Positions 3,344-62,552 of a stretch of 64,000 bases of DNA are shown here, one piece after another. This stretch comes from a virus. Lineage: Duplodnaviria; Caudoviricetes. Both the position numbers and the translations under genes were made by a program. Location of the stretch: positions 18,726 through 82,725 of IMG/VR virus record IMGVR_UViG_3300030060_002561. One strand, 5' to 3'. Position 1 is the stretch's first letter. Each line of letters opens with the position of its first letter. Under the pieces are notes generated by a model, which made no database searches, was not told the DNA's origin, and worked only from the letters and a program-made list of their open reading frames with translations.

Positions 3344-3922
3344 CTATACTGTCCGAGCGAACCGCTTCATCTCAACCGCTAGTTTGTAGCCCAATAACCT
3401 TTTTCCACGGTCATTGGCTTCCGACCTGCTTTGAAGTTTGATGAGGTCTGCATTACCTTCCACGGTTCCCGAAGTCCCACCACCTACATAGACGGTTGGC
3501 CTCAATGAGTTATTTTCTAGGATATATCGTGCTATTTCGTATAATGCCTTGAGCCTATCTCTAGAGAAAACTAGGCCAGCCTCATAGTCTGAGATATCAC
3601 CCCCAGTCTCAGTAATAGGATAACCATCTGCGAAATCCCTACGATGTAGGACTCTAAGATGAAGTGTGAATGTGTATGTCTCGTTTCTCACGGCATAGTC
3701 TATCGTTGGATAATCTGTGGTGTTGGAATCTTCGTATACAATAAGTATCGCCTTCTGGTCAGCATCTACCCTTCTGCCCTCGTTTGGCTTGATAGAACGA
3801 ACATCAATGAATCTAGGAGTTTCAACGTGACTAGCAGTTATCTTGCCAGCACTAACTAACGCACTAGCGGCGGCAGACCACCTATCAGATAACAAACGTA
3901 GTACCAACGTCACCTCATCCAT
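3344..3922 (-). CDS. Putative tail terminator/completion protein
   Basis: 192 aa, immediately upstream of the tail tube; called by synteny only. Confidence 0.45.
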   Translation of the reverse strand: MDEVTLVLRLLSDRWSAAASALVSAGKITASHVETPRFIDVRSIKPNEGRRVDADQKAILIVYEDSNTTDYPTIDYAVRNETYTFTLHLRVLHRRDFADGYPITETGGDISDYEAGLVFSRDRLKALYEIARYILENNSLRPTVYVGGGTSGTVEGNADLIKLQSRSEANDRGKRLLGYKLAVEMKRFARTV

Positions 3923-4130
3923 CTGTCAAAGCCTCCGACATTTTTCTGGCAAACGCCTCATCTGCGGCCTTTAGAGCCTGTTCATTCAATGCGCTCTCAG
4001 ATAGAGAAAACTCCCCAAGTCCCAAATCAGCAAGCATGGCGTTTCGCTCTATCTCTCTCTCCGCCGCCTCTCTGCCTATCTTCAAGGCTTTGAGCAATTT
4101 TCTTCTTACTTCTTCTACCATTTGAATCAC
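3915..4130 (-). CDS. Hypothetical protein (neck region)
   Basis: 71-aa ORF overlapping both neighbours in the operon. Confidence 0.5.
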   Translation of the reverse strand: MIQMVEEVRRKLLKALKIGREAAEREIERNAMLADLGLGEFSLSESALNEQALKAADEAFARKMSEALTDG

Positions 4131-5233
4131 GATATGAAATGGATGATGTTCTTCTTACCATCAATAATCTTGTTCGCCTCTTCAATTAGTATATCGTGCT
4201 TGGTCTTCAAGTCGATGTTTGAACCTGTTTCAGCAACAAGGATAGAATTGTCATCATGCCTAATTACTTCGGCGGCTACTAGTTTCGTAGCGGCTTCGTG
4301 AATAGGTGCAGGTACTCTTCCATCACCTGCGACATATGTGACTCTAATGGAGTGATTCTTGATGAATGGATACTTACTATGAAAGAATATCTTACCTTCA
4401 TGGCTTATCTGCCAGAAGTCATCTAGCCTCCCTTGTGTCTCATGGTCTGTAAATCCAGATACACTTCCGACTCCTGCACTTCCATCCTGCGTATCCACAG
4501 AAGCAATGGTGCAACTAGAGCCATCATCACCCATCAACAACGATGAGATTGTTACCTTGTCACCATCCTTGGTAGCATAGAAGAAATCAGATATATTTAC
4601 TGATGTGTTTCCAACGGCAGTCACAGTCTTACGTGCAGTTTCTCCTGTAAACTTAGCCGTTTTCATTGGATATACTTCATTGATTGCATCTACCAATTGA
4701 CTGGCTGTTGTCTTCGGGCCAAAGGAGTCAAAGAAATGAGTTCCCTCTATTATCTCAAAGGTATACGTTCCTGCGGTAAGTGTAATCTTCCAAGTCTGTG
4801 AATTAGTAGTAGCAGAGGATGGCATTGTGATACTAGCAGTAGCAGAAGCCAAGTCCACCCAATCGCTTCCTTGCCATATCTCTAACCTCACAAGTTTCTG
4901 AACCTTCGGAAATTCCAGTTGAACGAAACCAATGTAATCCCTGTACATAGTTACAGGATACATAAGATGGCGATTTGCCTCAAACGAAGAAAACTCATCT
5001 TTGTAGATTAGTGGTCTGTATGAGTGCTTGGTTGCATCATCTATCTTTTCTTCTACTCTCTTGATGAGTTTACCTACCTCTGCTCTCGTTGGTGTAGAGA
5101 AGTCTGTAAAGGACTCTATTTGGAGTAAGTTAGAAACATCTGTATGAGTAGTGTAGAATCCATTTCCTATTGTGTAGTTTGGATTGATAGACGTAAAATC
5201 GCTTGGGGAACCTAGTTTAACCATTTTAACCAC
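4127..5233 (-). CDS. Putative head-tail adaptor/connector
   Basis: N-terminal YTTHTDVSNLL helix and C-terminal VTYVAG...VPAPIHEAATKLVA resemble gp6/gp15-type adaptors; position fits. Confidence 0.6.
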   Translation of the reverse strand: MVKMVKLGSPSDFTSINPNYTIGNGFYTTHTDVSNLLQIESFTDFSTPTRAEVGKLIKRVEEKIDDATKHSYRPLIYKDEFSSFEANRHLMYPVTMYRDYIGFVQLEFPKVQKLVRLEIWQGSDWVDLASATASITMPSSATTNSQTWKITLTAGTYTFEIIEGTHFFDSFGPKTTASQLVDAINEVYPMKTAKFTGETARKTVTAVGNTSVNISDFFYATKDGDKVTISSLLMGDDGSSCTIASVDTQDGSAGVGSVSGFTDHETQGRLDDFWQISHEGKIFFHSKYPFIKNHSIRVTYVAGDGRVPAPIHEAATKLVAAEVIRHDDNSILVAETGSNIDLKTKHDILIEEANKIIDGKKNIIHFIS

Positions 5234-8153
5234 CGCTATAGATTACTCTTCTTAAGTCTTGATAATTGTTCTTTATCTTCATGAGCGCATTCACATCCTG
5301 TGCTTTCTCTTTATCGAATATGTTCTTCTCACCTTTACGAGAGTCATATGTCGCTCTCCATTGTTTTCTCCCGGCCTTTACTTCTGGCTTGGTACGAATA
5401 AGTTGCCTTTGGTGTATGCTATCCTTGTTCTTGTCAACGGGCTTACCTAGCCACATTAGATTCATTTGGGGTTGTATGAATGGGTCTTCATCATCATCTA
5501 TCTGAACTCCCCCTGCATTTTCTAGAAGTTTCTTGAGGTAGTCCTTATGGTCATAATAAATTTCTATAAGACCTTGGCCCTTATTTCCTATACTTGTCAT
5601 AATTTCCTCATGTGCTGAGTCACCCGACATCGTGGTAAACAACTCCGATAGACTGTAACTAAGACCGACATCTCCCTTTGGCCTGTAAAAGAGACTTGTC
5701 TTTCCAGTTCCCAAACCATCTATGATAGCCTTGTCTTGTGGCTCCATCTTTGCTTTATCTACATCTGGTTTTGCCAGTTCGATGTTATCTATGTACATGA
5801 TAATCTTATTGATATCTTCAACCAATTTAGTTAGGTCTGCTACTGTTTTAGTTGTATATCCCTGTGTAAAATCATTTAAGTCAACCTTAGCAAATCTGAA
5901 CTTTCTAAATGGTGGAGTCTTGTCGTCTACTTCCATTCTCTGACTTTCAACTATTGGAGTGCCTTCTCTATTTTTACCTTCAACAAGACGGCCTTTTTCA
6001 TCAATGGTATCTGCTTCGTAGAATTTACCCGGTTCTGTCGGTTTTTCCTTGACCTTACCTGTCTCCATGTCTACCTCATCAGGTGCATCTGCAACTTTCT
6101 TTTTCCAAGCATTGAACAACTCTGTGTATTGTGGGTTCTCTACTGCTTTCTTCCAATCTGGGTGGTCTTTTATTGCAGGTATTTCCTCTTCTATTTCCTC
6201 ATATGCTTTGGTATCTGGATTGTATCTATTTGCTAGTCTAATTCCACCTTCTGGATTCTTCAATGCATATGCATCGTTAGTAATCAAAGCCGCATACGAT
6301 ACCAAATCTTGCACTAGTTCTTCTTCATCTGTATATCTGTCAAGCATCTTTGCAAGTTCAAACTTAGGCATACTTTGAATCAACTGATTGTATTTGAAAA
6401 GAATGAATGTCACTTTCAGCAACTCTGGTACATATGCCATAAACTGCGAATCTTCTTTTGTGTCCTTTCTCTGTAGTGACATTAGGAATTTATCATATCC
6501 CGCATCTCCTTGGAACGGAGCATAGTTGATTTTGAATTCAGTAGTCCCAATTGATATAGAGCCATTAGAAGGTGTTATGGTTGATAGAATCATTCTCCTT
6601 AATGCATGTACATCTCTACCGCTTTTAGGTGGCTTTGATAGTAGAGCGTTCTTAATGTCGGTTTCTGTCAACTCCGTCAATCTTGCATTGTACGCTTCTC
6701 TAGGTGTCAAGTTATCTAATTCTGTACCGTCAAATCTTTTCAAGGTATAATTTGCACTAGTAATTATCCTTTTATTGTCTTTGTCAGTTCCTTCGATTCC
6801 TTTAGGAGTAAGATATTCTACACTGTAGTTATCTACCTTCTTCAATTCTCTCCTTTGACCTACACTCGATTTGATGATATCCATCGCTTTCATCATCTTT
6901 TCAGCAACCTCATCCTCATCTGGACTTCCTGCCTCTAACACTTCAATCTCTTCTTGAGGTTCTTCTTCGATGTCACCTTCACCTGTCTCAGCATCAGCAC
7001 CAGTCTCAGCACCTCGCATATCCTTTATGCTTTGCTTAGTATCCGCAATCTTATCTTCTAGGTTCTGTAAATAGGTATCGACTTCCTCTGGTGTGAGAAA
7101 GTTCTCTTTCTCCAGTCTCTTGAGTTGTCTCTTGAATTTTCTATAGTCCTTCATATATCCCCTTAAACCCGAAGAACTTTCCGCAGGTTCATCCTCAAAC
7201 TTATCCATTCCCTCTAGGATTTTATCAAGCATGTTCTGCATTTCTTCTGTGTCTGCTCCTTCTGGAGCATCCTTCATCTCAAACTGCCATTCATCCTTCG
7301 CTGGGTCATAGTACCCATGAATAGCCATGATAGCCTTGATGTAATCCTCAGTTTGAATTTTAATCGTATCTCCTTCTATTGATATGTTATCCAAGAACAT
7401 CTGAAAGGTATCGCTGTTTCTACCTATGTCCACTATTGGTTCTCCCTTGTCAAACTTGGATAGTAGGGATATGGTTCTGTTTGGCTTGTCTGCCTCTTGG
7501 AAATCTGGTTTGGGTGCTTCGGGTTTTTCTTTGACCTTACCTGCTTCATACTGCTTCATATCATCTTCATATTTTTTCTGTTGCTCTGGTGTCACCGCAG
7601 TTATCTTACCACTAGGAGAAAGCCCTGTACCTGCTTCATAGCCTACTACCTTCTGAATGGTAGATTCGCTATCCAATCTCTCTAGAGTTAGATTCTCCCC
7701 TTCCTTGCCACCTAGACGTTTTATCGTGGCTTCGGAGAGATTCAACTCCTTTGCTAGAAAATCTTCCTTTTGAAGTATCTTTATCAATAGTGAAAGATTC
7801 TCCTTTCCTAGTTTTTTCATGAATGTATCGAAGTATCTCTTCTTCTTGGTATCAGTAAAACTACCGGGCTTGTTCTTCCTAGTGGATATGTTTGCATCTG
7901 CAAAATCACTCTCATCTACATCAGCAAGTAGTGGCATCACTTTCCTTGCTTTGTTCATCTTTGCAGTTTGATTCTTACCTAGATTTTTGAAAGGATAGGC
8001 CGTTAGATACTGGAATGCTATGTTTCTCAAGAATTCTTCAAAGTCTGCTGATGCAGAAAGATTGTCAAAAACCGCATTCTGATTTTCTAGGCGTATCAAC
8101 TGGCCCGGAATAATCATTTTTTCCTTGTATCTATCTTGTTTAATCAGAACCAT
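5226..8153 (-). CDS. Large acidic hypothetical virion-associated protein (975 aa)
   Basis: Long, highly charged ORF in the structural operon; no catalytic motif recognised. Confidence 0.5.
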   Translation of the reverse strand: MVLIKQDRYKEKMIIPGQLIRLENQNAVFDNLSASADFEEFLRNIAFQYLTAYPFKNLGKNQTAKMNKARKVMPLLADVDESDFADANISTRKNKPGSFTDTKKKRYFDTFMKKLGKENLSLLIKILQKEDFLAKELNLSEATIKRLGGKEGENLTLERLDSESTIQKVVGYEAGTGLSPSGKITAVTPEQQKKYEDDMKQYEAGKVKEKPEAPKPDFQEADKPNRTISLLSKFDKGEPIVDIGRNSDTFQMFLDNISIEGDTIKIQTEDYIKAIMAIHGYYDPAKDEWQFEMKDAPEGADTEEMQNMLDKILEGMDKFEDEPAESSSGLRGYMKDYRKFKRQLKRLEKENFLTPEEVDTYLQNLEDKIADTKQSIKDMRGAETGADAETGEGDIEEEPQEEIEVLEAGSPDEDEVAEKMMKAMDIIKSSVGQRRELKKVDNYSVEYLTPKGIEGTDKDNKRIITSANYTLKRFDGTELDNLTPREAYNARLTELTETDIKNALLSKPPKSGRDVHALRRMILSTITPSNGSISIGTTEFKINYAPFQGDAGYDKFLMSLQRKDTKEDSQFMAYVPELLKVTFILFKYNQLIQSMPKFELAKMLDRYTDEEELVQDLVSYAALITNDAYALKNPEGGIRLANRYNPDTKAYEEIEEEIPAIKDHPDWKKAVENPQYTELFNAWKKKVADAPDEVDMETGKVKEKPTEPGKFYEADTIDEKGRLVEGKNREGTPIVESQRMEVDDKTPPFRKFRFAKVDLNDFTQGYTTKTVADLTKLVEDINKIIMYIDNIELAKPDVDKAKMEPQDKAIIDGLGTGKTSLFYRPKGDVGLSYSLSELFTTMSGDSAHEEIMTSIGNKGQGLIEIYYDHKDYLKKLLENAGGVQIDDDEDPFIQPQMNLMWLGKPVDKNKDSIHQRQLIRTKPEVKAGRKQWRATYDSRKGEKNIFDKEKAQDVNALMKIKNNYQDLRRVIYSGG

Positions 8154-8162
8154 CTACCTCAC

Positions 8163-8885
8163 CTATGCAAGCCACTTGGCCCAAGCAATGCCCTTACTGA
8201 CGGCATTAGCAAGACCAAGCCCGCTTGCGGGCGGGGTGTATGTCATCTGACCGGATACAGGGTCTATCCAATATGGATTGTTCATATTGTCATATCCAGA
8301 AGGAGGTACGGGATATCCAGATTGGTTGTTGAATGCCATTTGTTGTTGCATCATCGTGTTGTTCATCTGGACAGAGGCGTTACCACCTTGTATCATTGAT
8401 GGGTCTATGCCACTAGGATTGGGCTGACCGGGCATACCACCCACCATTGCTTGCTGTTGTGTGACCTGCTGTTCTTGTGGCATAGCAAATCCTTGAGCCT
8501 CAAGGTATTGCGTCTTAGCCATTCTTCTCTGCATGATGACTTCGGAGTTTATCGCAGAAGCAAGGAGAGTCTGTATGTCTAATTCGATGTTTGCCTGTGT
8601 GATAGCATTGAGAGCATTGGTAGAATCTACAGATAGAGAAAGATTACCATTGTTGGAAGTCACGAAAGCGAGATTTGTCAATATCTCACTAACGGTCTTG
8701 TTAACCACATCACCCACTAGTTGTGCTAATGCAGATAGAAATGCCTCACCATGATACTGAAAGAAATCCTCTACGTGATTCTCCTGTAGAGTCAACAGAT
8801 TGTTCATTGTCTTGAACTGAGCCTGTTGATTACTTTGCATCTGATTATACAGGGAACTATTGCTTGTTCCGAAAAGCCCCATCAC
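8163..8885 (-). CDS. Q/N/P-rich protein with WW-like motif and C-terminal amphipathic helix
   Basis: 240 aa with a low-complexity QQQ/MPGQP tract, PVPPSGY...PYWIDPVSGQMTYTPP, and the C-terminus LANAVSKGIAWAKWLA. Confidence 0.55.
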   Translation of the reverse strand: MMGLFGTSNSSLYNQMQSNQQAQFKTMNNLLTLQENHVEDFFQYHGEAFLSALAQLVGDVVNKTVSEILTNLAFVTSNNGNLSLSVDSTNALNAITQANIELDIQTLLASAINSEVIMQRRMAKTQYLEAQGFAMPQEQQVTQQQAMVGGMPGQPNPSGIDPSMIQGGNASVQMNNTMMQQQMAFNNQSGYPVPPSGYDNMNNPYWIDPVSGQMTYTPPASGLGLANAVSKGIAWAKWLA

Positions 8886-9556
8886 GCATCACTCTCCTTA
8901 GTGGTGACCTTCGCACCCTCGGTCAATAACGTTTTCACTCGTTGGTTAATTGTATTTTGCTCTATTAGCAACCGAAACAATTCTTCTTCGATGTTTTCTT
9001 GTTCTGCCGTAGGTGGTTTAATTGTCCAACCGACAGAAGAAAGTGACATGATATCAGTTTCTTTCAAGGTAGTCAAAGGACCAGAGGACAATGGATTCAG
9101 AGTCTGCATGGATGGGGTCTTAGGTATGTATGCGCTGAATGACAATCCATGTTCCTCTGCTAGTACCTGTTGCTCTAGCATCTCGTATTGCCTGTGTATA
9201 CCTGCATGTTTCTCGCAGTAGGTTCCTCGCATTGGGTATCCCTTGCGAACCTTGTGTAGTGGTAGAGGTGGTCGAAGATTATCACTTGCATCCCAGACTT
9301 TGTGTGTACCACACACCACACATCTATCTTTGATGTTGTACTTGAATCTGTATGGTATCTTTAGGAATGTTTTCTTCTCAGGTGTTAGTACCTTGATTAT
9401 CTCTTTCAATTGTTTCTTTGGCTTGACGCTCTTGTATTCATATTGCATTATGGAACCCGCGCTTCTAGCATGTTCCATTCTATCCATGAATGCCGTATTG
9501 GTTACATTCGTTGTCGAAGAACCTATCAAACTTGGTGGTTGGAATGACATTGACAT
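8882..9556 (-). CDS. Zinc-finger protein with ArfGAP-like signature
   Basis: C79-V-V-C82 ... WDASDNL ... C114-E-K-H117-A-G-I-H-R122, compared with the ArfGAP consensus CxxC...WAS.NL...CxxCSGIHR. Confidence 0.55.
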   Translation of the reverse strand: MSMSFQPPSLIGSSTTNVTNTAFMDRMEHARSAGSIMQYEYKSVKPKKQLKEIIKVLTPEKKTFLKIPYRFKYNIKDRCVVCGTHKVWDASDNLRPPLPLHKVRKGYPMRGTYCEKHAGIHRQYEMLEQQVLAEEHGLSFSAYIPKTPSMQTLNPLSSGPLTTLKETDIMSLSSVGWTIKPPTAEQENIEEELFRLLIEQNTINQRVKTLLTEGAKVTTKESDA

Positions 9557-9568
9557 ATGTTCACCGAA

Positions 9569-10240
9569 CTAGTAGTCCTTTATCATGGTTAGGACACCTC
9601 TGTAGACCATCTCAGAGTCTGTCTTGGCACTTACTATGTATTTGTAACAAGGAATTCCCTTGTCGTTTAATCTTTGAATGCCATCTCTGAATGCAGAGAA
9701 AATAGGATGCTGTTCTATTGGCCCATCATGTTCATACTTGTCTTTCCACAAGTCATACTTGTTAGCCCATATTCCTACTGCTACTGGATAGTCTGATTCT
9801 CTTTTCTTCTTTCTCTTACCATTGATGTTCCATTCTGTACTGCAAATTGTATCCACTAGGAAAGTCCAACACAGTTGTTGTTCGATATCATAATGCTTGT
9901 CCATGTGTCTATCATCCATCATGAAGATGATGTACTTGACTCTTCGATTCCTCATATCGTTTAACCAGTCATTCCAGTATACCGTCTGTCCACCTACATC
10001 AGCAGTCTTCACAGTATGTGCATCCCCGTCTAGTTTGACGTACTTCCTACTTGCACGTTGCAATCCTTCTGTCCTATGTCGAATATCTGGAACATCACCT
10101 CTCGTTCTCAACTGGTGATTCATAGTGGTCTTACCTGCTCTGGTAGCACCATATATTCCGAAGTTGATTGCATGTACACGTTGGTATAGTTTGTTAAGTC
10201 CCTCGACTATCAATATGGCAAAACCTGCCATTACTGACAA
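9569..10240 (-). CDS. Ras-superfamily small GTPase, Arf/Sar-like
   Basis: All five G boxes are present: G1 GATRAGKT (31-38), G2 T57, G3 DVGGQ (81-85), G4 NKYD (160-163), G5 SAK (204-206). The N-terminus is a hydrophobic/amphipathic helix. Confidence 0.9.
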   Translation of the reverse strand: MSVMAGFAILIVEGLNKLYQRVHAINFGIYGATRAGKTTMNHQLRTRGDVPDIRHRTEGLQRASRKYVKLDGDAHTVKTADVGGQTVYWNDWLNDMRNRRVKYIIFMMDDRHMDKHYDIEQQLCWTFLVDTICSTEWNINGKRKKKRESDYPVAVGIWANKYDLWKDKYEHDGPIEQHPIFSAFRDGIQRLNDKGIPCYKYIVSAKTDSEMVYRGVLTMIKDY

Positions 10241-10244
10241 GATA

Positions 10245-10469
10245 TCACCACAGATGGTCCCAGAAGTCTACTAGGCCATTCCAAGCCATTGATAGGGTGT
10301 TGATTCCATAAACCGCTAGGAGTTGTCCAAGTGCAAAACTACTCAGACAGAAGATTCCGCCCCATAGGTAGAACCTAGCCCTAAGAAACCAGATATCAGC
10401 AGAGTGCGCTCTTTGTAGGTCATATGCAAGGGTTGACTCATCCATTCCAAATAGGATTTCGCTTACCAT
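10245..10469 (-). CDS. Small membrane protein
   Basis: 74 aa with hydrophobic segment FYLWGGIFCLSSFALGQLLAVYGI and a Trp-rich amphipathic C-terminus. Confidence 0.65.
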   Translation of the reverse strand: MVSEILFGMDESTLAYDLQRAHSADIWFLRARFYLWGGIFCLSSFALGQLLAVYGINTLSMAWNGLVDFWDHLW

Positions 10470-10484
10470 ACATATTCCTCACAT

Positions 10485-10892
10485 CTACTGGTTTTCAAGT
10501 GTTAAGAACGCAGGAGTCATTGTCTCTGGTTCTTCGGCCTTCACCGTTGGAAGAGTAGTATCCCCGTAGGGAGTGTAGTTCTGCTGGAAGCGAGCCATCG
10601 ACTCTCGCACTCTTCTCTTGTTTTGCTCTTCTCTTTCCTTCCTACCCCAGTAACCATCAATGGCTCTCCTAAGTAGACCTTCCTCAATCATATCGCTAAG
10701 GAACACATCAAATGCCACTTTGACAACAAGTATCCCACCTACCGTACTAATGCCAAATAAGATGGCATGTGCTTCTGGCCCGTATGGGAAGGATATCCCG
10801 TACTGTGAGTATGCGAATACATTCACACCACACATAGAACCTACGAACAGTATCGCCATAATCATGCGGGTGTCTGTTTCTAGGCTTGGCAT
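10485..10892 (-). CDS. Two-TM membrane protein (holin-like topology)
   Basis: Two hydrophobic segments (MIMAILFVGSMCGVNVFAY; AILFGISTVGGILVVKVAF) followed by a charged tail. Confidence 0.65.
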   Translation of the reverse strand: MPSLETDTRMIMAILFVGSMCGVNVFAYSQYGISFPYGPEAHAILFGISTVGGILVVKVAFDVFLSDMIEEGLLRRAIDGYWGRKEREEQNKRRVRESMARFQQNYTPYGDTTLPTVKAEEPETMTPAFLTLENQ

Positions 10893-10901
10893 ATTTTTTC
10901 C

Positions 10902-11213
10902 TCAACTATAGTTAACGGTGACTGCAACAGTAGCACCTGACGCAGTTACATCTACTAGTATTCCATCTGATAGCAAAGCCCCATGAAAGTCATGCTCTAA
11001 GTTCGTTACTGCGTTTGGTAGGTATATTCTTGCTATCTCGTCAGCACTAACCTTCGTTGTGTCGTGACTGTCATAGATGTTAACTGTCGCAGTAGAACCA
11101 CCATCAGAACTGATATGAATACTGTTTAATCTAACCTTCTGTGGAGACTTACCACCAACTACAACAACGTTGTCTGGACTAACTAACAGTTTGCTAGTTG
11201 CTACTGTGGTCAT
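10902..11213 (-). CDS. Small beta-rich structural protein
   Basis: 103 aa, V/T/S-rich, downstream of the capsid genes. Confidence 0.5.
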   Translation of the reverse strand: MTTVATSKLLVSPDNVVVVGGKSPQKVRLNSIHISSDGGSTATVNIYDSHDTTKVSADEIARIYLPNAVTNLEHDFHGALLSDGILVDVTASGATVAVTVNYS

Positions 11214-11737
11214 CCTTCTGCCTCCAATAGCGCATCAATTAGAATCGACTTCTTACCATCTGCCTTGATTCCTCTCTCATCGAGTAGAGCCTTGAGTTGC
11301 TTGTTGGTGAGTTTCTCTAGATTTGGTGGCAGAGGGGCAAGGACTTCCTTTTCTTCCTTGACTGGCTTCTCCATTTGAGGATGAATCTCTTCCTTAGCCT
11401 CTGGTAGTTTCTCCGGCTTGGGCTTGGCCTTACCACCGAAGAACGACTTGCTCTTTCCGAATATTTTCTCAACCATAGTCGGACCATCATCATCCTCGGT
11501 CAATTTATCATAGTGACCAACTAGATGGCTTCTCTTGTACTTTGACATAGTAGCCAAGTCCTTCTCATCGTTTGAGTCTAGGACTACTGTGTAGTTGTCA
11601 TCTCTAAGAAGCGAACTAGCATACCTCAAGGGTATGTCTACGTCTTGTTTGTATCCTACAACGTATCTGTCAGTACCGAAATTTATTCTCATTGCTCGAC
11701 CATTCAATGGTCTGTTCGTTAGTCTAACCTTAGCCAT
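11210..11737 (-). CDS. Protein with C-terminal SAP/HeH-like DNA-binding motif
   Basis: C-terminus LEKLTNKQLKALLDERGIKADGKKSILIDALL fits a SAP motif. Start reassigned to ATG 11737, which has a GGTGAG RBS; the longer ORF start lies inside a hairpin. Confidence 0.65.
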   Translation of the reverse strand: MAKVRLTNRPLNGRAMRINFGTDRYVVGYKQDVDIPLRYASSLLRDDNYTVVLDSNDEKDLATMSKYKRSHLVGHYDKLTEDDDGPTMVEKIFGKSKSFFGGKAKPKPEKLPEAKEEIHPQMEKPVKEEKEVLAPLPPNLEKLTNKQLKALLDERGIKADGKKSILIDALLEAEG

Positions 11738-11758
11738 ATTCTCACCTAGTAATAGAGG

Positions 11759-11800
11759 GTAGCGACCCCCTTCCTGATGTTCTAGGAAGAGGGCCACTAC
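11759..11800 (-). terminator. 17-bp stem-loop after the capsid/decoration genes (terminator or mRNA stabiliser)
   Basis: Minus strand GTAGTGGCCCTCTTCCT-agaacatc-AGGAAGGGGGTCGCTAC pairs fully only with G-U wobbles on the minus-strand transcript. Confidence 0.6.
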
Positions 11801-14879: not shown

Positions 14880-17474
14880 TTAATCTGATTTTTTAGTTGG
14901 AAATGACAAATCTGCGTATTTATCTTCTGTAATATCCCAGAGTTTTGTATCATCCTTCATATCCAACATCTCTTGTTTCTTACCTGTCCAGACAATCCAA
15001 GTCTTCTTCTCATCTAGAGGTACAACTCTAACGTGGAATCTAGTATCGAACTTGTCACCTTCTAGTTTGTATTCATGGTATCCTTCTTTCTGTACACCTA
15101 GTATTAACTTACCAGAATCTATCTCCTTCTTATGTTGACCTAACCGTTTTCCTACAATAGCAGGGAACTTCCCAGACTTACCAAACAAGTCGTATATGTC
15201 CTCACTGTTTTCTATATCAATCTCCCAGAAGTTTCTCTTGTCATTAACATCCATGATGAAATCCAAGTTGCCATCTTCTCTCAAGATGATGCTAAACGAA
15301 CCTGTTTCTCTTTTTTTTAATTCCTCGACATCCTTCTCTAGTACATCTGGTATGGCAGTAAACTTGTTGGGATGATGATATCTCAGACTATCCTGCTTCT
15401 TCATCCAAGTCATCAGATTCTCATCGCTACTCTGGAAAACCTCTTCGTATGTCTCTGGGAACTCCTTCTTTACGAAATCAACTATCTTAGGAAAGGCAGT
15501 TGGTTTGTTCTTGTATATGTCTATTATCTCATTCTTGATTGCGATTCTTAATTCTGACCTTCTGGTTTTCAACATCCTCTCTAGTTCAGACTTCCACATG
15601 TCTAGATTGTACAATGCGTTCTTCTGCATAAGTGAATCACCTTCAAATCCATATATGGTGAAACCATCAAAGTCGCTCTTCAAGATTATCTCAGCAGTAC
15701 CATGTATGTCATCAGTTATCATATACGACTTCTTTTCATTGGTCTTGTCCTTTATTCCAGTTGTGATATTGAACGGGCTGAGTTGTCGAACCCCAATCAT
15801 AGCATCTGAAGTCAATGATTTCTTGGTCTTGGTAGATAACTTCTCCAATGTGGATAGTTTGTCTGACTGAGTTACTTCTGGTATCTCTATCACTTTAGCA
15901 GAGTAGAGATTGAATCCCTTCTTATTCTTCTTGACTTCATCCACCTTGACTCTAACTATGTCTCCGACACTTACCTTTACCTTGGTGTTGAGTGCCTTAC
16001 CAACTGAAACATATGCCTTGTCATCCATCTCCGTAGTTGTATAAGTCCTAGCCTCTTCCGCAGTAATCGGGCCTACTCCCATAGTGTAAGTATGCATTCC
16101 ATTGTTAGTGGATTTCTTATCTAGTACAATAACATCCAAGTCAACGAACTTTTTCCACTTAATCCACTTCGGATTCTTCTTCTTTGTAATTGGATATGTT
16201 GACTCCATATCCTTGATTACCACTCCCTCCGATGCAGGTAGTTCCATGATATCCTTCGCATACTCTCCTACTTCCTTGATTGAGTCTGCGACTCTGGTAT
16301 CTTTCTTCGATGGGAATGCGAGAGAATCAGATGAGTGTTGACTGAATTGGTATAGAAGGATGTTATGTCTCTCTCTCAATGGTTCATCATGAATGTCCTT
16401 GCCCTCATGTTGCATTATGTCAAACACATGCGCTCTTAGTTCTCCACCTTTCTTGTTCTTGAAAACATGAGCAATGGTAGAAGCCCGATGTAGTGGTTCA
16501 TCATCCTCAAACAGAACCAACTCTCCATCTAGTATACAATCCCCGAACTGCTTCTTCCTTAGTTGCTCGACTTGCTTCTCACATTTGTCAGTAATATCCT
16601 TCTTGTTGTATGAGTATACCTTGATGTTATCCTTCTTCTTGTGAAGTTGTATTCTCATGCCGTCATACTTCTCTTGAACCAACCACTCTCCAGTAAATCC
16701 CTTCAACTCCTTCAAGTCATCTAACTCAAATATCCTGTACATCGGTTTGTTTGGTATGATGAAATCTATTTCCGATTTCTCATCTACACTCTTCTCGTCT
16801 TCGCTCTTCTCTAGGTCTAACTCAACTAGATTGTCCCATTGTTCATCTTCGTATACGCCATTGAACATCTTGTCGAGTCGCTTCAATGCTCCCTTGAACT
16901 TTGACTTGATTCTGCTTTGGTCTTCATCTTCTGCCCCATAGTGTTCTATGATGTAGAGAGGTATGTCATCCATCTCTAAATCCAATCCCATTGCACCTTG
17001 AGTGACATTATCTCCCTCCATGTCGTGTTCTTCCCATATTTTATCGGGAAGTGCATTGGAATGGGAACGTAGTGCATAGTGAATAAATGCAATGAAGAGT
17101 CTGTCACTCTCCAATAGGGTGTTTATCACATCCCCTTCAAACTTCTTGGAGAACGGGTCGCTAACTTTCTTGGACTGGAACCTCATGTCCTTGACGGCTT
17201 CGTATACCTTCTTGGCTTCTAGAGTGGTTGGGTCTTTAGCAGACTTGTCGAATAGAACCTTCTCTTCTAGATACTTCTTCAATTCCTCAGACAGTTTGTT
17301 TAGTGAGTCGAAGTCATCTCTGATTTTATCTATGACTTCGTGCCATTCCTTCTCATACTCTGCTTTGTCCTCTCTGGCTGAAAGATAGGCGTATCGTGTC
17401 TTCTCAAAGAAATCAAGAATTGCTCTAGTCAAATCCTCAGTTTCTTTCTCAAACATCAATCCTGTTTCAACCAC
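14880..17474 (-). CDS. ATP-dependent DNA ligase with N- and C-terminal extensions (head module)
   Basis: Motifs I QEKYDGMR, III ILDGEL, IIIa VFDIM, IV EGVVIK and V WIKWK, plus an OB-fold region; 864 aa. Confidence 0.85.
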   Translation of the reverse strand: MVETGLMFEKETEDLTRAILDFFEKTRYAYLSAREDKAEYEKEWHEVIDKIRDDFDSLNKLSEELKKYLEEKVLFDKSAKDPTTLEAKKVYEAVKDMRFQSKKVSDPFSKKFEGDVINTLLESDRLFIAFIHYALRSHSNALPDKIWEEHDMEGDNVTQGAMGLDLEMDDIPLYIIEHYGAEDEDQSRIKSKFKGALKRLDKMFNGVYEDEQWDNLVELDLEKSEDEKSVDEKSEIDFIIPNKPMYRIFELDDLKELKGFTGEWLVQEKYDGMRIQLHKKKDNIKVYSYNKKDITDKCEKQVEQLRKKQFGDCILDGELVLFEDDEPLHRASTIAHVFKNKKGGELRAHVFDIMQHEGKDIHDEPLRERHNILLYQFSQHSSDSLAFPSKKDTRVADSIKEVGEYAKDIMELPASEGVVIKDMESTYPITKKKNPKWIKWKKFVDLDVIVLDKKSTNNGMHTYTMGVGPITAEEARTYTTTEMDDKAYVSVGKALNTKVKVSVGDIVRVKVDEVKKNKKGFNLYSAKVIEIPEVTQSDKLSTLEKLSTKTKKSLTSDAMIGVRQLSPFNITTGIKDKTNEKKSYMITDDIHGTAEIILKSDFDGFTIYGFEGDSLMQKNALYNLDMWKSELERMLKTRRSELRIAIKNEIIDIYKNKPTAFPKIVDFVKKEFPETYEEVFQSSDENLMTWMKKQDSLRYHHPNKFTAIPDVLEKDVEELKKRETGSFSIILREDGNLDFIMDVNDKRNFWEIDIENSEDIYDLFGKSGKFPAIVGKRLGQHKKEIDSGKLILGVQKEGYHEYKLEGDKFDTRFHVRVVPLDEKKTWIVWTGKKQEMLDMKDDTKLWDITEDKYADLSFPTKKSD

Positions 17475-23528: not shown

Positions 23529-24995
23529 TCACTCCTTCTCCATTACTTTGTGTTCAAACAGATAATCCGATGCATCATCTACTGAACTCCATTCATCTTC
23601 GGATAAATCATGCTCTTCAGCAATCTCTTCCAAGTCGTCTATGGCATCATCCACATCAGACGACTTCAAGATACCTTCTATCTTATCCATTTCGTTCATC
23701 TTAGAATTGCCATAGAGTTTCTCTATGCTATTGACATCAATATCAAACTCTGACCAGTTAAAGCCAACGTGGTCTTTGTGGTTCTCGTACTTCATCAACT
23801 TGAATAGTTCCTCTTTTCTTGCCTTGTACCAATCAGCCTTCTTGTGAGACTTCTTCATTCTTACTAACTCAAGAAGTATCTCCGCATTGCCCTTCTTCAT
23901 CTTGAAGTGTGGAAGACACTTTGTTAGCAACTCTGTGACATCAGCCGCAGAGTAGAAGTTCAGCCTGTTCACTGGTCTGGTATTCTGTGGTGATTTCTGG
24001 TCTAGATGTAATCTACCGCACCCAAGGGATTTATGCATCTCCATCATGAATGCCTTTCCCCTATCTCCTGTAGCAACCAATCCAACTCTAGGATTGAAGT
24101 TCCTATCCATTGTAATGTATCCATCCGAATCTATGAAAGCGGCAGTATAGGCATAGATGTCTTTCTTGATATCATCTGATAACTTGTAGAATGCACCATC
24201 CACCTGTGTTATGTTATTGACCTTCGCTATCTTTGAGATGATAGTTGGACTAGATTTCTTGAATAGATTCTTAGGGAGTCTCTCATGTATTTGTCTAGAA
24301 GAAATACCGGGTTCCTCTGAAACCGACTTTACTATGTGGTCTGCTAGAACATCCTTCTGATTCTCACGATGAATATGATTCTTGATAATCTGCTTGAACT
24401 CTCTCTTGGATGCAGTCATCGACTTGCTTAACTCTCCATATCCCTTCTGATATTCTACCATGTTGAAGTCTTGCCTGTCTTCCCAATACTTACAAAGAAC
24501 ATCTACCAATTTTCTTCTAGTAGTAACATCTTGAATCTTTGATAGTTTCAAGAGATTGTCCTCACTACAGTTCATCTCCTTGAGTACGGGCTTGTACTTT
24601 GCTATCCAATAGATTTCATCTATTGATTTGTCTAAGTGGTCTGAATACGCTTCAATCAAACCATCAATTGATTTTGTGATAGCCAGCCTTGGTTCTCCTT
24701 TCAATGACCTTCTGTACTTTCTGAGACTCTTAATCATCTGAGGAATGTCCTGTCCCTCTATCTCATACTTGTTAACTGAATTCTTCAGCATCTTCTTTGC
24801 ATCTGTTAGTGATATCTCAAACTCCCTAGCAAAATTTTTCTCGATGGAGAAGTGGTCATCTAGTGAAACTGTGAGAAGCCATTGCTTCTGAGTTCCATCC
24901 AAGTCGTCAATTAGAGTCTGTTGCTCTTGCTCCAACTCTTCTTGCTCATCAGCGAGTTGTGCCGCTTCTCTGAATTTATCACCTTTAACACCCAT
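23529..24995 (-). CDS. LAGLIDADG endonuclease-domain protein
   Basis: YTAAFIDSDGYI motif with downstream LGCGRL and LPHFKMKK. The long N-terminal region contains the HTH-like PGISSRQIHERL. Confidence 0.75.
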   Translation of the reverse strand: MGVKGDKFREAAQLADEQEELEQEQQTLIDDLDGTQKQWLLTVSLDDHFSIEKNFAREFEISLTDAKKMLKNSVNKYEIEGQDIPQMIKSLRKYRRSLKGEPRLAITKSIDGLIEAYSDHLDKSIDEIYWIAKYKPVLKEMNCSEDNLLKLSKIQDVTTRRKLVDVLCKYWEDRQDFNMVEYQKGYGELSKSMTASKREFKQIIKNHIHRENQKDVLADHIVKSVSEEPGISSRQIHERLPKNLFKKSSPTIISKIAKVNNITQVDGAFYKLSDDIKKDIYAYTAAFIDSDGYITMDRNFNPRVGLVATGDRGKAFMMEMHKSLGCGRLHLDQKSPQNTRPVNRLNFYSAADVTELLTKCLPHFKMKKGNAEILLELVRMKKSHKKADWYKARKEELFKLMKYENHKDHVGFNWSEFDIDVNSIEKLYGNSKMNEMDKIEGILKSSDVDDAIDDLEEIAEEHDLSEDEWSSVDDASDYLFEHKVMEKE

Positions 24996-53454: not shown

Positions 53455-53835
53455 ATGATGAGAGTCTTACTGGCATTGCTTCTACTGTCTTCATCATTGG
53501 CGGGTTGTGCGGAGATGATACCTGACCCTCCATTAGAAGAAGACAAACCACTCTGGGTCACAGAGTATCATAACTTCACCTACGAGAATAACACCACACT
53601 TCCAATGATATCATTCGGTGACAACACCACATTGTTTGAGGTGTTTTCAGCGAGTGTGGTTATGTACAATGAAACGGTCAATCAAACAATAGAGATGAAA
53701 CCATACTTTCTGATTGACGATACAAGATTCAAACAACAACATGCACCTGCTATGGGAGAAGTATCCTTGGTGTTAATAGACTTGGAAGGATATCAGTACA
53801 ATTGCACAGTTGTGTATAGGTTGTGGAAACTATGA
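53455..53835 (+). CDS. Predicted lipoprotein
   Basis: Signal MMRVLLALLLLSSSLAGC with an LAGC lipobox and several N-x-S/T sequons. Confidence 0.7.
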   Translation: MMRVLLALLLLSSSLAGCAEMIPDPPLEEDKPLWVTEYHNFTYENNTTLPMISFGDNTTLFEVFSASVVMYNETVNQTIEMKPYFLIDDTRFKQQHAPAMGEVSLVLIDLEGYQYNCTVVYRLWKL

Positions 53836-54412: not shown

Positions 54413-54642
54413 GTAATGATAAGATGAAGATAGTGGCTAGGTTTCCTAGAAGCGCAACAACGGAGTTGGTGGTGCAAGAAGGAGAGTATTGGAACATCGA
54501 GGTAATTGACGTTAGATGGTTCAATGAAGGAAAGCCCACAAGGAAGGGCATAAGAATAAACAAAGACGAGTTAGGGAATCTCTTGAAAATTCTCAATAAA
54601 ATTGGTGATAAAAATGTGGATAAGAATGGCGAGGATGCTTGA
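54409..54642 (+). CDS. PC4-like ssDNA-binding protein
   Basis: IDVRWF...KPTRKGIRI matches the PC4/YdbC signature. Confidence 0.75.
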   Translation: MSNDKMKIVARFPRSATTELVVQEGEYWNIEVIDVRWFNEGKPTRKGIRINKDELGNLLKILNKIGDKNVDKNGEDA

Positions 54643-56161
54643 AGTAATAGAGAATGTAAATAGCACTAATGCTAAGGTCGAAGCAATAGAGAGAAATTTC
54701 AGTTCTTTCAACCCCGGTTGGGCCGGGATGATGACTGTACTCTTGGGTGATTATGGGCCTAGCAATATAGGAGAGAAGAGAGCAATCTCTTGGTTGGCTT
54801 CTATACTAGGAGTGCATGAAGAAGAGATAAAGTCGTATGCGGAGTCATATGGTGACTTGGGTGAAGGTGTGTACATGTTCGGTGGTGTTTCAGAAACGCC
54901 TTCTGACATCACCATAACAACCGTATTGAGATTGTTCAATATGGATTGTTCTTCTATAAATGGTCAAGCGTATTCCATGTACGAAGAAATTCTCAGACAG
55001 ATGGATTCTTTGGAGTTGAAGTGGTTTGTTAGATATTGGTTGAAGACACCTAGGAATGGTGTTAGTACATCAACAGTAACGAAAGCCATGGCACAACGAC
55101 ATGGTTCTAGGTTCGTTTCAAGGTTGAGAGACTTCGATATGATTACGTTATTGTCATATGCGGAAGCAAATCCAGATGATTGGGAAAAGCATCTACCAGA
55201 AGTAAGTCACATTGGTAGGTACATCAAGCCCATGCTTGCTAAGAAGTTAGAAGACAACCAACCACTACCAGAAGAATACGTGATTGATATCAAGTATGAT
55301 GGTAACAGGTATCAGATACACCATTCTCCAGATACTACTATGATATTCAACAGAGCAGGTAAGTTAGTCACAGAACAGTATCCAGATGTAGTCAGTATAT
55401 TGGAAGACTGTAATGATACCTTCATTGTTGACGGAGAGATTTATCCAGTTAACCATGATGGCTCTCCCGCAGAACACAAGAAACTAGGAACAAGAGTACA
55501 CTCTAAAGATAAGGCTCAGGCCGTAGCAGATTGCCCAGTAAAACTGGTCGTCTTCGACATAATGTATGATGGATTTGAGTCTCTTCTTGATATGCCATAT
55601 AAAACAAGACTAGAGCAACTGGAGAAGTTTGTTGTTCTAAGGCCATACAATGCAAGGCTTCTATCGCTAGACCGTGTTGCTTCCTACAACTACGCAATCA
55701 ATGAAGGATACGAAGGTATCATGATTAAGGATTTGAATGCGCCATACGAATCTAAGAGAAGTAAGGCTTTGTTGAAGCACAAGCCACCAAGGATAGATTT
55801 CGATGTCGTGATATTATCAGCCAAGTATGGTGGGGGGAAGAGAAGTGATGTCTTTGGCACATATGAGATGGGAGTGGTTAGTGATGATGGTTATACATCC
55901 GTGGGTTCTGTTGGTTCAGGTCTTAGTGATGAAGACCTTTTGTCATTGACTACACAACTAAAGAGGATAGTCGAAAGATATGACAACAAGACAGACACGT
56001 TTCACGTACTACCGAGGATTGTACTACAGGTGACTGCTGATTTAGTATCAAGAGATGCCAATGGAAACTACGGTCTGAGGTTCCCTAGAGTACAGAGAAT
56101 CCGACATGACAAGTATCCTGCTGATTGCAATACCTTAGATGACGTAAGAGGTGAGGCATGA
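54602..56161 (+). CDS. lig: ATP-dependent DNA ligase (replication module)
   Basis: IKPMLAKK, DIKYDGNR, IVDGEI, VFDIM, EGIMIK, VGSGLSDE and LRFPRVQRIRHDK. Confidence 0.93.
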   Translation: MVIKMWIRMARMLEVIENVNSTNAKVEAIERNFSSFNPGWAGMMTVLLGDYGPSNIGEKRAISWLASILGVHEEEIKSYAESYGDLGEGVYMFGGVSETPSDITITTVLRLFNMDCSSINGQAYSMYEEILRQMDSLELKWFVRYWLKTPRNGVSTSTVTKAMAQRHGSRFVSRLRDFDMITLLSYAEANPDDWEKHLPEVSHIGRYIKPMLAKKLEDNQPLPEEYVIDIKYDGNRYQIHHSPDTTMIFNRAGKLVTEQYPDVVSILEDCNDTFIVDGEIYPVNHDGSPAEHKKLGTRVHSKDKAQAVADCPVKLVVFDIMYDGFESLLDMPYKTRLEQLEKFVVLRPYNARLLSLDRVASYNYAINEGYEGIMIKDLNAPYESKRSKALLKHKPPRIDFDVVILSAKYGGGKRSDVFGTYEMGVVSDDGYTSVGSVGSGLSDEDLLSLTTQLKRIVERYDNKTDTFHVLPRIVLQVTADLVSRDANGNYGLRFPRVQRIRHDKYPADCNTLDDVRGEA

Positions 56162-59664: not shown

Positions 59665-59916
59665 ATGGTGATAATAATGGTAAAGAAAATATTAGATTTG
59701 AATGAAGACGGCGAAGTTAACTTTGACGACTTCAAACATCTCATGCTAAGGTATGAGATAATACTAGTTGGGGGGTTACTCCTAACTATACTTCCCTTGC
59801 TAAAACTAGCAGGGGTATTAACATTAGATTCCGATTGGTTTTGGATATTGGCCGGAGTGGTCATAAGTGCCGAAGCCGTATTGGAAATTCTAAAAACAAA
59901 AAAAGAAAAAAAATAG
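59665..59916 (+). CDS. EF-hand-loop membrane protein
   Basis: DLNEDGEVNFDD loop followed by two hydrophobic segments and a Lys-rich tail. Confidence 0.6.
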   Translation: MVIIMVKKILDLNEDGEVNFDDFKHLMLRYEIILVGGLLLTILPLLKLAGVLTLDSDWFWILAGVVISAEAVLEILKTKKEKK

Positions 59917-62373: not shown

Positions 62374-62552
62374 TGTCAGTCAAGAGATATCATTACGAAA
62401 CGGATGAGGAATACTACAAGGCCAAGGACAAGGAAGCCAATGACTTAGTTATGTGGATGCACAACTTCCACATCAAAAGAGAGGGTTTCTGGAAGACTGC
62501 ATGTTGGATTTCTATATTGGTGAATGTCATACTGCTCTACGAGGTGCTTTAG

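Follow-up and report, generated by a model that had tools for sequence, protein, structure and literature searches.

Why should a tailed virus of marine archaea keep a small GTPase, two membrane proteins and two proteins without a known family side by side among its virion genes? The question is raised by a DNA stretch of 64,000 nucleotides, called the window here, which comprises bases 18726-82725 of the 82,725-base IMG/VR record IMGVR_UViG_3300030060_002561, a record judged 88% complete. At positions 8163-10892 of the window, five co-oriented minus-strand open reading frames (ORFs) are tightly packed, and an initial annotation had proposed that they encode a GTP-switched system for membrane remodelling, expressed late in an archaeal head-tail virus. 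It is near-certain that the five genes form a real, conserved cassette, and the GTPase is, in its predicted structure, nearest to the membrane-bound branch of GTPases that includes Arf, Sar1 and SR-beta. The release of finished virions is the use that we tentatively favour for it.

Read along the minus strand, the cassette begins with a membrane protein of 135 residues (10485..10892), in which two hydrophobic segments (residues ~8-29 and ~39-70) are followed by a strongly charged C-terminus rich in Lys, Arg and Glu. It is followed by a Trp-rich membrane protein of 74 residues with one hydrophobic segment at ~33-57 (10245..10469), a putative small GTPase of the Arf/Sar/SR-beta type with 223 residues (9569..10240, starting at TTG 10240 or at ATG 10231, its codon 4), a Cys/His protein of the zinc type with 224 residues and no known family (8882..9556), and a Gln/Asn/Met/Gly-rich protein, called Gln-rich below. 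The last of these is an ORF of 240 residues (8163..8885), but its gene probably starts at the ATG at 8882 (8163..8882, 239 residues), because its Atlas entry begins at residue 2 and its relatives begin with MGLFG. The intergenic gaps are 15, 4 and 12 nt, the last two genes overlap, and the flanking genes lie 9 nt from the block on either side. A Kyte-Doolittle scan found two segments in the 135-residue protein, one in the 74-residue protein and none in the Cys/His and Gln-rich proteins; among the clade-1 relatives described below, two segments were seen in 57/58 copies of the larger membrane protein and one segment in 55/59 copies of the smaller. The ORF list and hydropathy thus confirm the inventory that had been read from this region, namely five packed, co-oriented genes for a two-segment protein, a one-segment protein, a GTPase, a Cys/His protein and a Q-rich protein.

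All five ORFs, the small ones included, are real genes, because they are under strong purifying selection. Compared with 56-59 relatives per gene, the proportion of nonsynonymous differences (pN) was 0.12-0.27, and that of synonymous differences (pS) was saturated at 0.74-0.81. The ratio of nonsynonymous to synonymous substitution rates (dN/dS) was 0.06-0.11 across the five genes in the usable pairs, which numbered 2, 26, 20, 11 and 19, respectively, the other pairs being saturated. For the gene of the 135-residue protein, dN/dS was 0.05-0.12 in its 2 usable pairs, with pN 0.27 vs pS 0.81, and for that of the 74-residue protein the median dN/dS was 0.11.

Whether the five genes stay together in relatives had been set beforehand as a test that could refute the initial annotation, and they do so across three deep clades. 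In the clade of the window (clade 1), 80 IMG/VR loci were found via the GTPase, at 72-100% identity. The cassette is colinear and co-oriented in 80/80 of them, and the complete set of five genes is present in 71/80, missing genes falling at contig ends; the 135-residue protein was seen in 78, the 74-residue protein in 79, the Cys/His protein in 78 and the Gln-rich protein in 73. The converse search, which started from the capsid gene, gave the same picture: of 80 capsid-found loci, 51 have at least 3.3 kb of sequence downstream, and in 51/51 the GTPase gene follows that of the capsid protein at a distance of 1.4-2.2 kb. With two loci of identical GTPase omitted, the GTPase has a median identity of 78% to its counterpart in the window, followed by the Cys/His protein (72%), the 74-residue protein (69%), the capsid protein (68%), the Gln-rich protein (65%) and the 135-residue protein (54%). 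The GTPase is the most conserved among the 14 neighbouring genes compared, and the genes immediately outside the block are far more variable (25-40% identity).

Two deeper clades carry the same arrangement. In clade 2, the GTPase is 25-34% identical to that of the window among the 80 loci listed of 288 confirmed; by tblastn, it was recovered in 80/80 of these listed loci and the Cys/His protein in 5/80. The order of genes is a ~188-residue membrane protein, a ~82-residue membrane protein, the GTPase, a ~326-residue Cys protein and a ~214-residue Gln-rich protein that again begins MGLFG, after which stands an extra gene for a ~84-residue protein with two segments. Compared by hhalign, clades 1 and 2 match in the GTPase (E 8.9e-37), the Cys/His protein (6.5e-10) and the Gln-rich protein (1.8e-7). 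Clade 3 (4 IMG/VR loci and one contig of an archaeal metagenome-assembled genome, MAG) has the same gene order as well; its membrane proteins are linked to those of clade 2 by profile (1e-12 to 1e-15 for one, 2e-5 for the other), and its Cys/His and Gln-rich proteins are linked to those of clades 2 and 1, the Gln-rich core at 4e-10.

The surroundings of the block differ from clade to clade. In clade 1, it stands after the capsid and decoration genes. In clade 2, a capsid match within 8 kb was found in 0/80 loci, and on a contig from a single-cell genome the block lies ~9 kb upstream of the large terminase gene (TerL), the capsid gene is ~21 kb away, and the three share a strand. In clade 3, a thermosome subunit gene lies upstream. 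This gene encodes a group II chaperonin (Cpn60_TCP1, E 1e-133 to 1e-140) at 4250-5785 of locus L176 and 3820-5481 of locus L179; it adjoins the cassette in L179, and one 71-residue ORF intervenes in L176. The cultured halovirus HVTV-1 offers a comparison for the interval between capsid and tail-tube genes: two genes of the window have homologues in it, the one at 4127-5233 (E 3.5e-15) and the tube gene (E 2.2e-10), and in the 10-protein set compared it has no counterpart of any of the five proteins (all E >0.07). Because the block is relocated among clades and missing in HVTV-1, it is an insertion into an inherited order of head, connector and tail genes and no part of that order. It is a self-contained cassette that keeps its internal order at different genomic places.

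Two further observations concern these surroundings. HVTV-1 gene 124 (L175 15650-15982), which encodes a protein of 110 residues with a hydrophobic N-terminal segment, lies just before the homologue of 4127-5233 and roughly in the slot of the clade-1 cassette; it has no significant similarity to the cassette proteins (best E 0.12). In the upstream flank of clade 2, several unrelated proteins start with a D-x-A-W-x-I-L-K motif (compare W-x-x-[ILV]-[IL]-[KR]), such as those at 1191-1577, 2055-2372, 3736-4050, 4038-4988 and 6068-7093 of locus L092; by eye, a motif of this type is present in none of the five cassette proteins of the window.

What kind of GTPase is it? All five G boxes and the DVGGQ motif reported by the initial annotation are present in the window, but the Gln of that motif is not conserved across the 125 distinct family members compared. 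These members show little or no variation in G1 (GxxxxGKTT), the Arg-Thr of switch I, G3 (DxGG) and G4 (NKxD), and their G5 reads SAK or ATR. The P-loop of the window protein is GATRAGKTT at residues 31-39 (10124..10150), with G31, G36, K37, T38 and T39 invariant; G3 is DVGGQ at residues 81-85 (9986..10000), with D81 and G84 invariant and an invariant Trp92 downstream; and G4 is NKYD at residues 160-163 (9752..9763), with N, K and D invariant, all on the minus strand. In an alignment of 20 members, G31, G36, K37, T38, T39, D81, G84, W92, D109 and R111 are invariant, and N160, K161 and D163 nearly so. Switch I is longer than in Arf relatives, and there is a basic hairpin insert at ~134-152. The Arf family is defined by a catalytic Gln in the G3 motif DVGGQ. 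In the viral family, the position after DxGG (residue 85) is occupied by Q (66 members), E (49), D (9) or H (1) (n=125), the window having Q; a conserved catalytic Gln, the mark of Arf proteins, is thus not a trait of this family (Q in 66/125).

The AlphaFold2 (AF2) model of the GTPase is of good quality, with a predicted local distance difference test score (pLDDT) of 88.3 and a predicted template modelling score (pTM) of 0.85, and its structural neighbours are Arf6, Arl, ArfR, SR-beta and Sar1. A wide structural search was ranked by VIA-align over 48,161 cluster representatives; two such rankings were preferred to that of plain Foldseek, the gap being small. Arf6 scored 18.3, SR-beta 17.7, Sar1 17.3, an Asgard RagA-like protein 17.2 and G-alpha-i 16.6, followed by a mimivirus Rab at 16.4 (Rab proteins in general at most 16.4) and Ras-like chains at most 15.4. 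By this modelled fold, the GTPase is nearest to the membrane-bound Arf/Sar1/SR-beta branch, which leads by one to three Z units. Comparison of the family profile with PDB sequences points in a similar direction: the top match is the Asgard ArfR protein GerdArfR1 (8oun_A, E 6.6e-9), and Ras and Rab chains come next (~4e-6 to 3e-5). The structures 8OUN and 8OUM are described as the full and the N-terminally truncated forms of GerdArfR1 (10.1101/2024.02.28.582541). Since the truncated form (8oum_A, 8.8e-6) scores worse than 8oun_A, part of the ArfR lead appears to come from the N-terminal helix. The prediction that the GTPase would group with membrane-associated rather than non-membrane families therefore holds at the level of predicted structure. 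A textbook Arf it is not: Pfam Arf (PF00025) matched the window protein at 16.6 bits (E 0.0055), below the cut-off of 22.3, with G-alpha and SRPRB also matched, and the catalytic Gln is variable. Among the 20 members, Arf was matched by 6/20 at E<=0.1, the best at 3.1e-6.

A cellular source for the family did not come to light. At E<=0.001, 318 relatives were found in a 90%-clustered collection, all of them from marine metagenomes, and 57 among 1.84 billion 50%-representatives, none of which is a standard cellular GTPase. In 151 Poseidoniales genomes, the profile found no cellular GTPase at E<=0.01; its matches were a viral contig and two P-loop-only matches in ORFs of 551 and 594 residues. 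Among 185,579 species genomes, a search with one short pattern, which cannot show the absence of cellular homologues, gave 4 loci, all with the whole or a partial viral cassette. Two MAG contigs assigned to bacteria, L162 (Maricaulis sp., 28.9 kb, clade 1) and L164 (Parvibaculum sp., 8.2 kb, clade 2), carry the full cassette and are for that reason most likely mis-binned viral contigs. By tblastn, the GTPase, Cys/His and Gln-rich proteins had no match in 50,697 phage records, and the three most divergent GTPase representatives (P0152, P0148 and P0132) had no loci among the viral contigs. In BFVD, all 50 matches listed are giant-virus proteins, mostly Ras-superfamily GTPases, and no protein of a prokaryotic virus is among them.

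The Cys/His protein is an orphan. Its core (C79, C82 ... C114, H117; 9206..9322, minus strand) emerges from an alignment of 26 sequences of two clades, in which C79, G83, C114, H117, Y73, N74 and P59 are invariant and C82 is shifted in part of clade 2. The ligand spacing in the window is CxxC-x31-CxxH, to which clade 2 adds an insert of ~22 residues. The ArfGAP zinc finger, named after the GTPase-activating proteins (GAPs) of Arf, is defined by CxxC-x16-CxxC. The residue at position 122 is Arg in 14/14 clade-1 rows and His in 12/12 clade-2 rows. No Pfam ArfGap or OapC match was obtained at E<=1, the sole Pfam row being DUF4279 at E 0.13, and no relative was found in PHROG, NCBIfam, PDB or the Atlas; there are 533 relatives, none of them named. 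With no ArfGap match, a spacing of x31 and His in place of Arg, the 'ArfGAP-like' label that the protein had been given is not supported. GPN-loop GTPase 3, which appeared in the PDB profile search (E<=10) at E 0.54, was dismissed as a chance-level match. The AF2 model of the protein (mean pLDDT 53.4, pTM 0.37) is too poor for fold comparison, and in two runs without controls, prediction of a complex between the Cys/His protein and the GTPase (bound to GTP and Mg) yielded an ipSAE of 0.00, which is evidence neither for nor against contact.

The Gln-rich protein begins MGLFG, contains 11% Gln and 10% Asn, and ends in a Trp-rich hydrophobic tail. Profile-profile matching and alignment define a conserved core of ~80 residues, at residues ~49-128 (8499..8738, minus strand). 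Clades 1 and 2 differ in where the low-complexity Q/N/M/G stretch stands: C-terminal of this core in the former, N-terminal in the latter. The protein had been called Q/P-rich with an amphipathic C-terminus; it is Gln/Asn/Met/Gly-rich instead, and the C-terminal tail is indeed hydrophobic, but its amphipathicity is weak (hydrophobic moment, muH, 0.26-0.27), and the Trp-rich AWAKWLA tail is found in clade 1 only and is missing in the deeper clades. No PDB or Pfam relative was found, and a Pfam scan of 26 proteins gave scattered weak matches. OspC3, a PDB profile row at E 0.05, was rejected as chance level, and a likeness of the MGLFG start to the N-termini of ESCRT-III proteins was considered and dropped, no result being in its support.

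To which virus does the cassette belong? Magroviruses are characterised by a halovirus-like capsid, portal and protease and a genome of 65-100 kb (PMC5434244); they are said there to have halovirus-like structural genes, a ligase in the structural block and another in the replicative block, and ribonucleotide reductase (RNR) in group B, the two-ligase layout being reported for groups A and B (Philosof et al., 2017; PMC5434244). Capsid, protease, portal, both ligases, RNR and record size all agree with this in the window. By family search, the major capsid protein gene lies upstream of the cassette, and the structural block around it includes the prohead protease, the portal and TerL, and the tail tube and tail assembly chaperone. 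A DNA-ligase-domain protein of 864 residues (14880-17474, minus strand) lies inside the head-assembly block, and a second, ATP-dependent DNA ligase of 519 residues with N- and C-terminal ligase domains (54602-56161, plus strand) lies in the opposite, replicative half, as do a UvrD-type helicase and RNR. The LAGLIDADG gene mentioned in the same description (PMC5434244) was not confirmed, 23529-24995 being without a Pfam family. Searched against the 50,697 phage records, the capsid protein matched 11, archaeal tailed viruses without exception; the 3 matched over 87% of its length are Haloarcula viruses of the HCTV-1 type. These capsid matches, together with the magrovirus gene set, bear out the earlier claim of an archaeal head-tail virus; its gene content places it among the magroviruses, whose hosts are the Poseidoniales (Marine Group II archaea). 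The host assignment is supported by the contig from the Poseidoniales single-cell genome (106,262 bases, or 106 kb), which carries a clade-2 GTPase, a TerL 40% identical to that of the window and a related capsid gene (44-46%). This contig, which is of full magrovirus size and has cassette, TerL and capsid gene on one strand, probably represents a virus caught in an infected cell, and would then be a direct host link.

The flanks of the cassette can be described more closely. The neck genes that had been proposed as its neighbours are in part supported: the 368-residue gene at 4127-5233 (minus strand) matches HVTV-1 gene 125, which is located between the capsid and tail-tube genes of that virus, but gene 125 has no annotated function, neck or other. 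Between the capsid gene and the cassette, 11210-11797 (minus strand) encodes a 195-residue protein with a C-terminal SAP domain (Pfam E 1.8e-7), a DNA-binding motif that is unusual for a head-gene block. Directly after the cassette, and outside it, 5226-8153 (minus strand) encodes a 975-residue acidic protein, apparently rich in coiled coils, which is the least conserved gene of the region. It was seen in 19/80 loci at 19-34% identity and is elsewhere absent or replaced, the exception being the near-identical loci L002/L003, where it is 95% identical.

What, then, might the cassette do? In our preferred reading, the GTPase would be a nucleotide-controlled switch that docks on the cytoplasmic membrane of the host via its N-terminal helix and its two membrane partners. 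It would be produced along with the virion genes and would drive or control a membrane change late in infection, most probably the step that releases finished virions. The two membrane proteins may be the hole-forming or anchoring parts, and the two orphan proteins may be a regulator and an effector. Several lines of evidence make us favour such a role in membrane change and release: the nearest structural kin of the GTPase all work on membranes; a hydrophobic helix stands at the N-terminus of the GTPase; the genes always found beside it encode membrane proteins, one of them loosely holin-like; the block shares its strand with the virion genes; virion assembly in cultured relatives proceeds without the cassette; and no exit mechanism is known for archaeal tailed viruses, for which a review names only hypothetical hole-formers as proposals (PMC10791045). 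That a GTP switch works at a membrane has, in our judgement, roughly even odds, and a role in egress in particular has about one chance in three. The statement as a whole, of a GTP-controlled membrane device made with the virion genes, acting late and most probably serving virion release, we hold to be somewhat less probable than its negation, although it is better placed than any of the alternatives below. Its most specific form, in which magroviruses possess an Arf/Sar-like machine of their own, made up of a switch, a pair of membrane subunits, a regulator of the zinc type and a Gln-rich effector, which remodels or ruptures the host membrane for release, is possible but distinctly on the doubtful side.

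Late expression of the cassette is something that we infer from its operon position, and transcription of its first genes in nature is weakly supported. In four marine metatranscriptome runs, from one study and at most two samples, with contigs placed at a likeness of at least 90%, long RNA-library contigs cover the capsid and protease genes (11.4-14.3 kb), and short ones at 10287-10583 and 10570-10815 (run X1) and at 10628-10796 (run X2) cover the two membrane-protein genes. The capsid gene is far more deeply covered than the block in these contigs, and parts of the block are not covered, but neither difference is usable for ranking expression.

A number of points weigh against a GTP-driven release device. 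RNA-library contigs may include DNA, and they give no levels, strands, ends or ranking of genes. Fast, GAP-stimulated hydrolysis of the Arf kind seems doubtful in this family, because the Gln is replaced by Glu or Asp in 58/125 members. The N-terminal helix that the initial annotation had stressed is partly upheld: a 24-residue extension is predicted to be helical (residues 3-22 in the AF2 model; 10175..10234, minus strand) and is hydrophobic (mean H 0.26-0.29, muH 0.29-0.42), but it is not significantly amphipathic (z 0.9-1.5 vs shuffles), and the local confidence of the model is low there (pLDDT 56-67). Pfam matches over the 20 members are spread over MMR_HSR1 (14), Roc (13), SRPRB (12), Ras (10) and Arf (6), and plain Foldseek puts Rabs first, together with Arl3. 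The membrane proteins of clades 1 and 2 are not demonstrably homologous (hhalign E 0.008 and 0.013), and neither the cassette nor the genes beside it yielded any match to a lytic or envelope-degrading enzyme family. Moreover, there are other small membrane-type ORFs on the replicative strand that could bear on lysis or exclusion: 53455-53835 (plus strand) encodes a 126-residue protein with a signal peptide and a lipobox-like LAGC, 59665-59916 (plus strand) an 83-residue protein with two hydrophobic segments, and 62373-62552 (plus strand) a 59-residue protein with a C-terminal segment.

Among the alternatives, a role in assembly deserves the first hearing: heads, tails or DNA packaging may be aided by a platform that the cassette anchors to the membrane and controls by GTP, or by a condensate that the Gln-rich protein seeds. 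The block is always on the virion-gene strand, near the capsid gene in clade 1, ~9 kb from TerL in clade 2 and beside a chaperonin gene in clade 3; conservation of the GTPase matches that of core virion proteins; and the last gene consistently has its low-complexity Q/N/M/G region. HVTV-1, however, which has the same head, connector and tail genes, assembles without any of the five proteins, and the position of the block is not fixed to any one virion gene. Nor are tailed viruses known to require a membrane for this. We consider an assembly role unlikely, if worth keeping in mind.

Equally unlikely, in our estimate, is a membrane job other than release, such as vesicle making in the manner of ArvABC, a block to superinfection, or a membrane opening at entry by proteins carried in the virion. 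A precedent for the first exists in ArvA, ArvB and ArvC, where a helix-bearing Arf-like GTPase and two partners, one of them a Zn-ribbon protein, are described as driving vesicle formation (PMC10927574), and the host may lack such a system, because OapC/ArvC (PF09845) was found in 0/61 Poseidoniales genomes searched, with Haloferax and Methanosarcina positive as controls. Set against this, the five proteins lack any sequence link to OapC and do not rise above Pfam noise, and the viral profile found no cellular GTPase in the 151 Poseidoniales genomes. Entry has no obvious need for a GTPase, and nothing places the five proteins in virions.

Less probable again is the view that the genes merely travel together without a common function, the GTPase serving an unrelated cytosolic task such as an aid to translation or replication. 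It can appeal to the 14/20 family members that match MMR_HSR1, a ribosome-associated family, and to the fact that nothing shows contact among the five proteins; yet the gene order has been kept through three relocations and down to ~30% GTPase identity, the gaps are of a few bases where the genes do not overlap, and the structural neighbours are Arf, SR-beta and Sar1, not GTPases of the Era or Obg type. Just as improbable is an Arf-ArfGAP pair, with the Cys/His protein as a GAP of the ArfGAP kind for the neighbouring GTPase: the two genes adjoin in every locus, the ligands C79, C114 and H117 are invariant, clade 1 has an Arg four residues past the last ligand, and the ArvC Zn-ribbon protein has been proposed as a GAP by analogy (PMC10927574), but the lack of an ArfGap match and of any PDB or Atlas relative, the spacing of 31 rather than 16, the His as last ligand, the change of the Arg to His throughout clade 2 and the variability of the very Gln that an ArfGAP would assist in catalysis all speak against it.

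If the release device proposed here is real, it would be the first GTPase-driven exit system of any prokaryotic virus. It would also mean that an Arf-like membrane switch has arisen or persisted outside Asgard archaea and eukaryotes, in viruses of a host order that apparently has neither ArfR-like nor ArvABC-like systems. Magroviruses are reported to rank third in abundance among groups of marine viruses (PMC5434244), and because they are so abundant, the way in which they kill their hosts affects the flow of carbon in the ocean. The GTPase of the cassette, more conserved than the capsid protein, is a concrete candidate that can be tested without culture of the host. The known range of Arf/Sar-like membrane GTPases would be widened beyond eukaryotes, Asgard archaea and the ArvA family, which bears on the evolution of such switches. 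The cassette was not found described in the searchable literature; GTP, Ras and Arf are absent from the main texts of PMC5434244, PMC10160649 and PMC11706807, where words beginning with 'Ras' or 'Sar1' are unrelated ones such as SAR11 and SAR116, and whose supplementary tables may list the genes, for example as hypothetical.

How does the cassette compare with known systems? The GTPases of giant viruses, such as the mimivirus Rab (PDB 5XC5), are a different case: eukaryotic viruses recently acquired them from the Rab, Ras or Ran genes of their hosts, whereas the cassette GTPase is an orphan family in an archaeal tailed virus and has membrane partners of its own. Holin/antiholin cassettes are closer in outline, in that two small membrane proteins lie on the late strand, one of them with two segments and a charged C-terminal tail; the 135-residue protein thus has the small size, membrane segments and charged tail of a holin, a loose description that many proteins fit. 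It has no Pfam, PHROG or NCBIfam family, and no PHROG similarity was found for either cassette membrane protein. Unlike holin systems, the cassette has no adjoining endolysin-like enzyme, and its fixed partners are a GTPase and two orphan proteins, a combination without parallel among described holin systems.

The Arf/Arl/Sar1/SR-beta branch, ArfR included, shares with the viral protein the Ras-superfamily G domain with five G boxes, and its members all act on membranes. The likeness extends to DxGG followed by a Trp seven residues past the Gln position, which aligns with the Trp of GerdArfR1, and to a helix of ~24 residues before strand 1. The viral GTPase differs from them in being only 14-24% identical, in falling below the Pfam Arf cut-off, in the alternation of Gln with Glu or Asp, in its longer switch I and hairpin insert, and in a helix that is hydrophobic rather than clearly amphipathic. 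It is, besides, a viral gene for which no homologue was found in the host order (151 genomes); ArfR is presented in the study of GerdArfR1 as almost confined to Asgard archaea (10.1101/2024.02.28.582541).

For the arrangement as a whole, the nearest described analogue is ArvABC (OapABC) of Haloferax volcanii, a likeness of organisation to which no sequence link was found. As summarised in the report on that system, it consists of a GTPase with an N-terminal helix (ArvA), a SepF-like protein (ArvB) and a Zn-ribbon protein (ArvC), the last proposed as a GAP by analogy, and it is needed for normal vesicle formation (PMC10927574). The differences are that ArvABC is cellular and has neither membrane-protein genes nor a Gln-rich protein, and that OapC (PF09845) and DUF2073, the family of ArvB, are absent from the Pfam scan of the five cassette proteins at E<=1, the likeness to ArvA resting on its description. 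The two systems nevertheless coincide in their plan: an operon in which a small Arf-like GTPase with an N-terminal helix is joined by a zinc-type partner.

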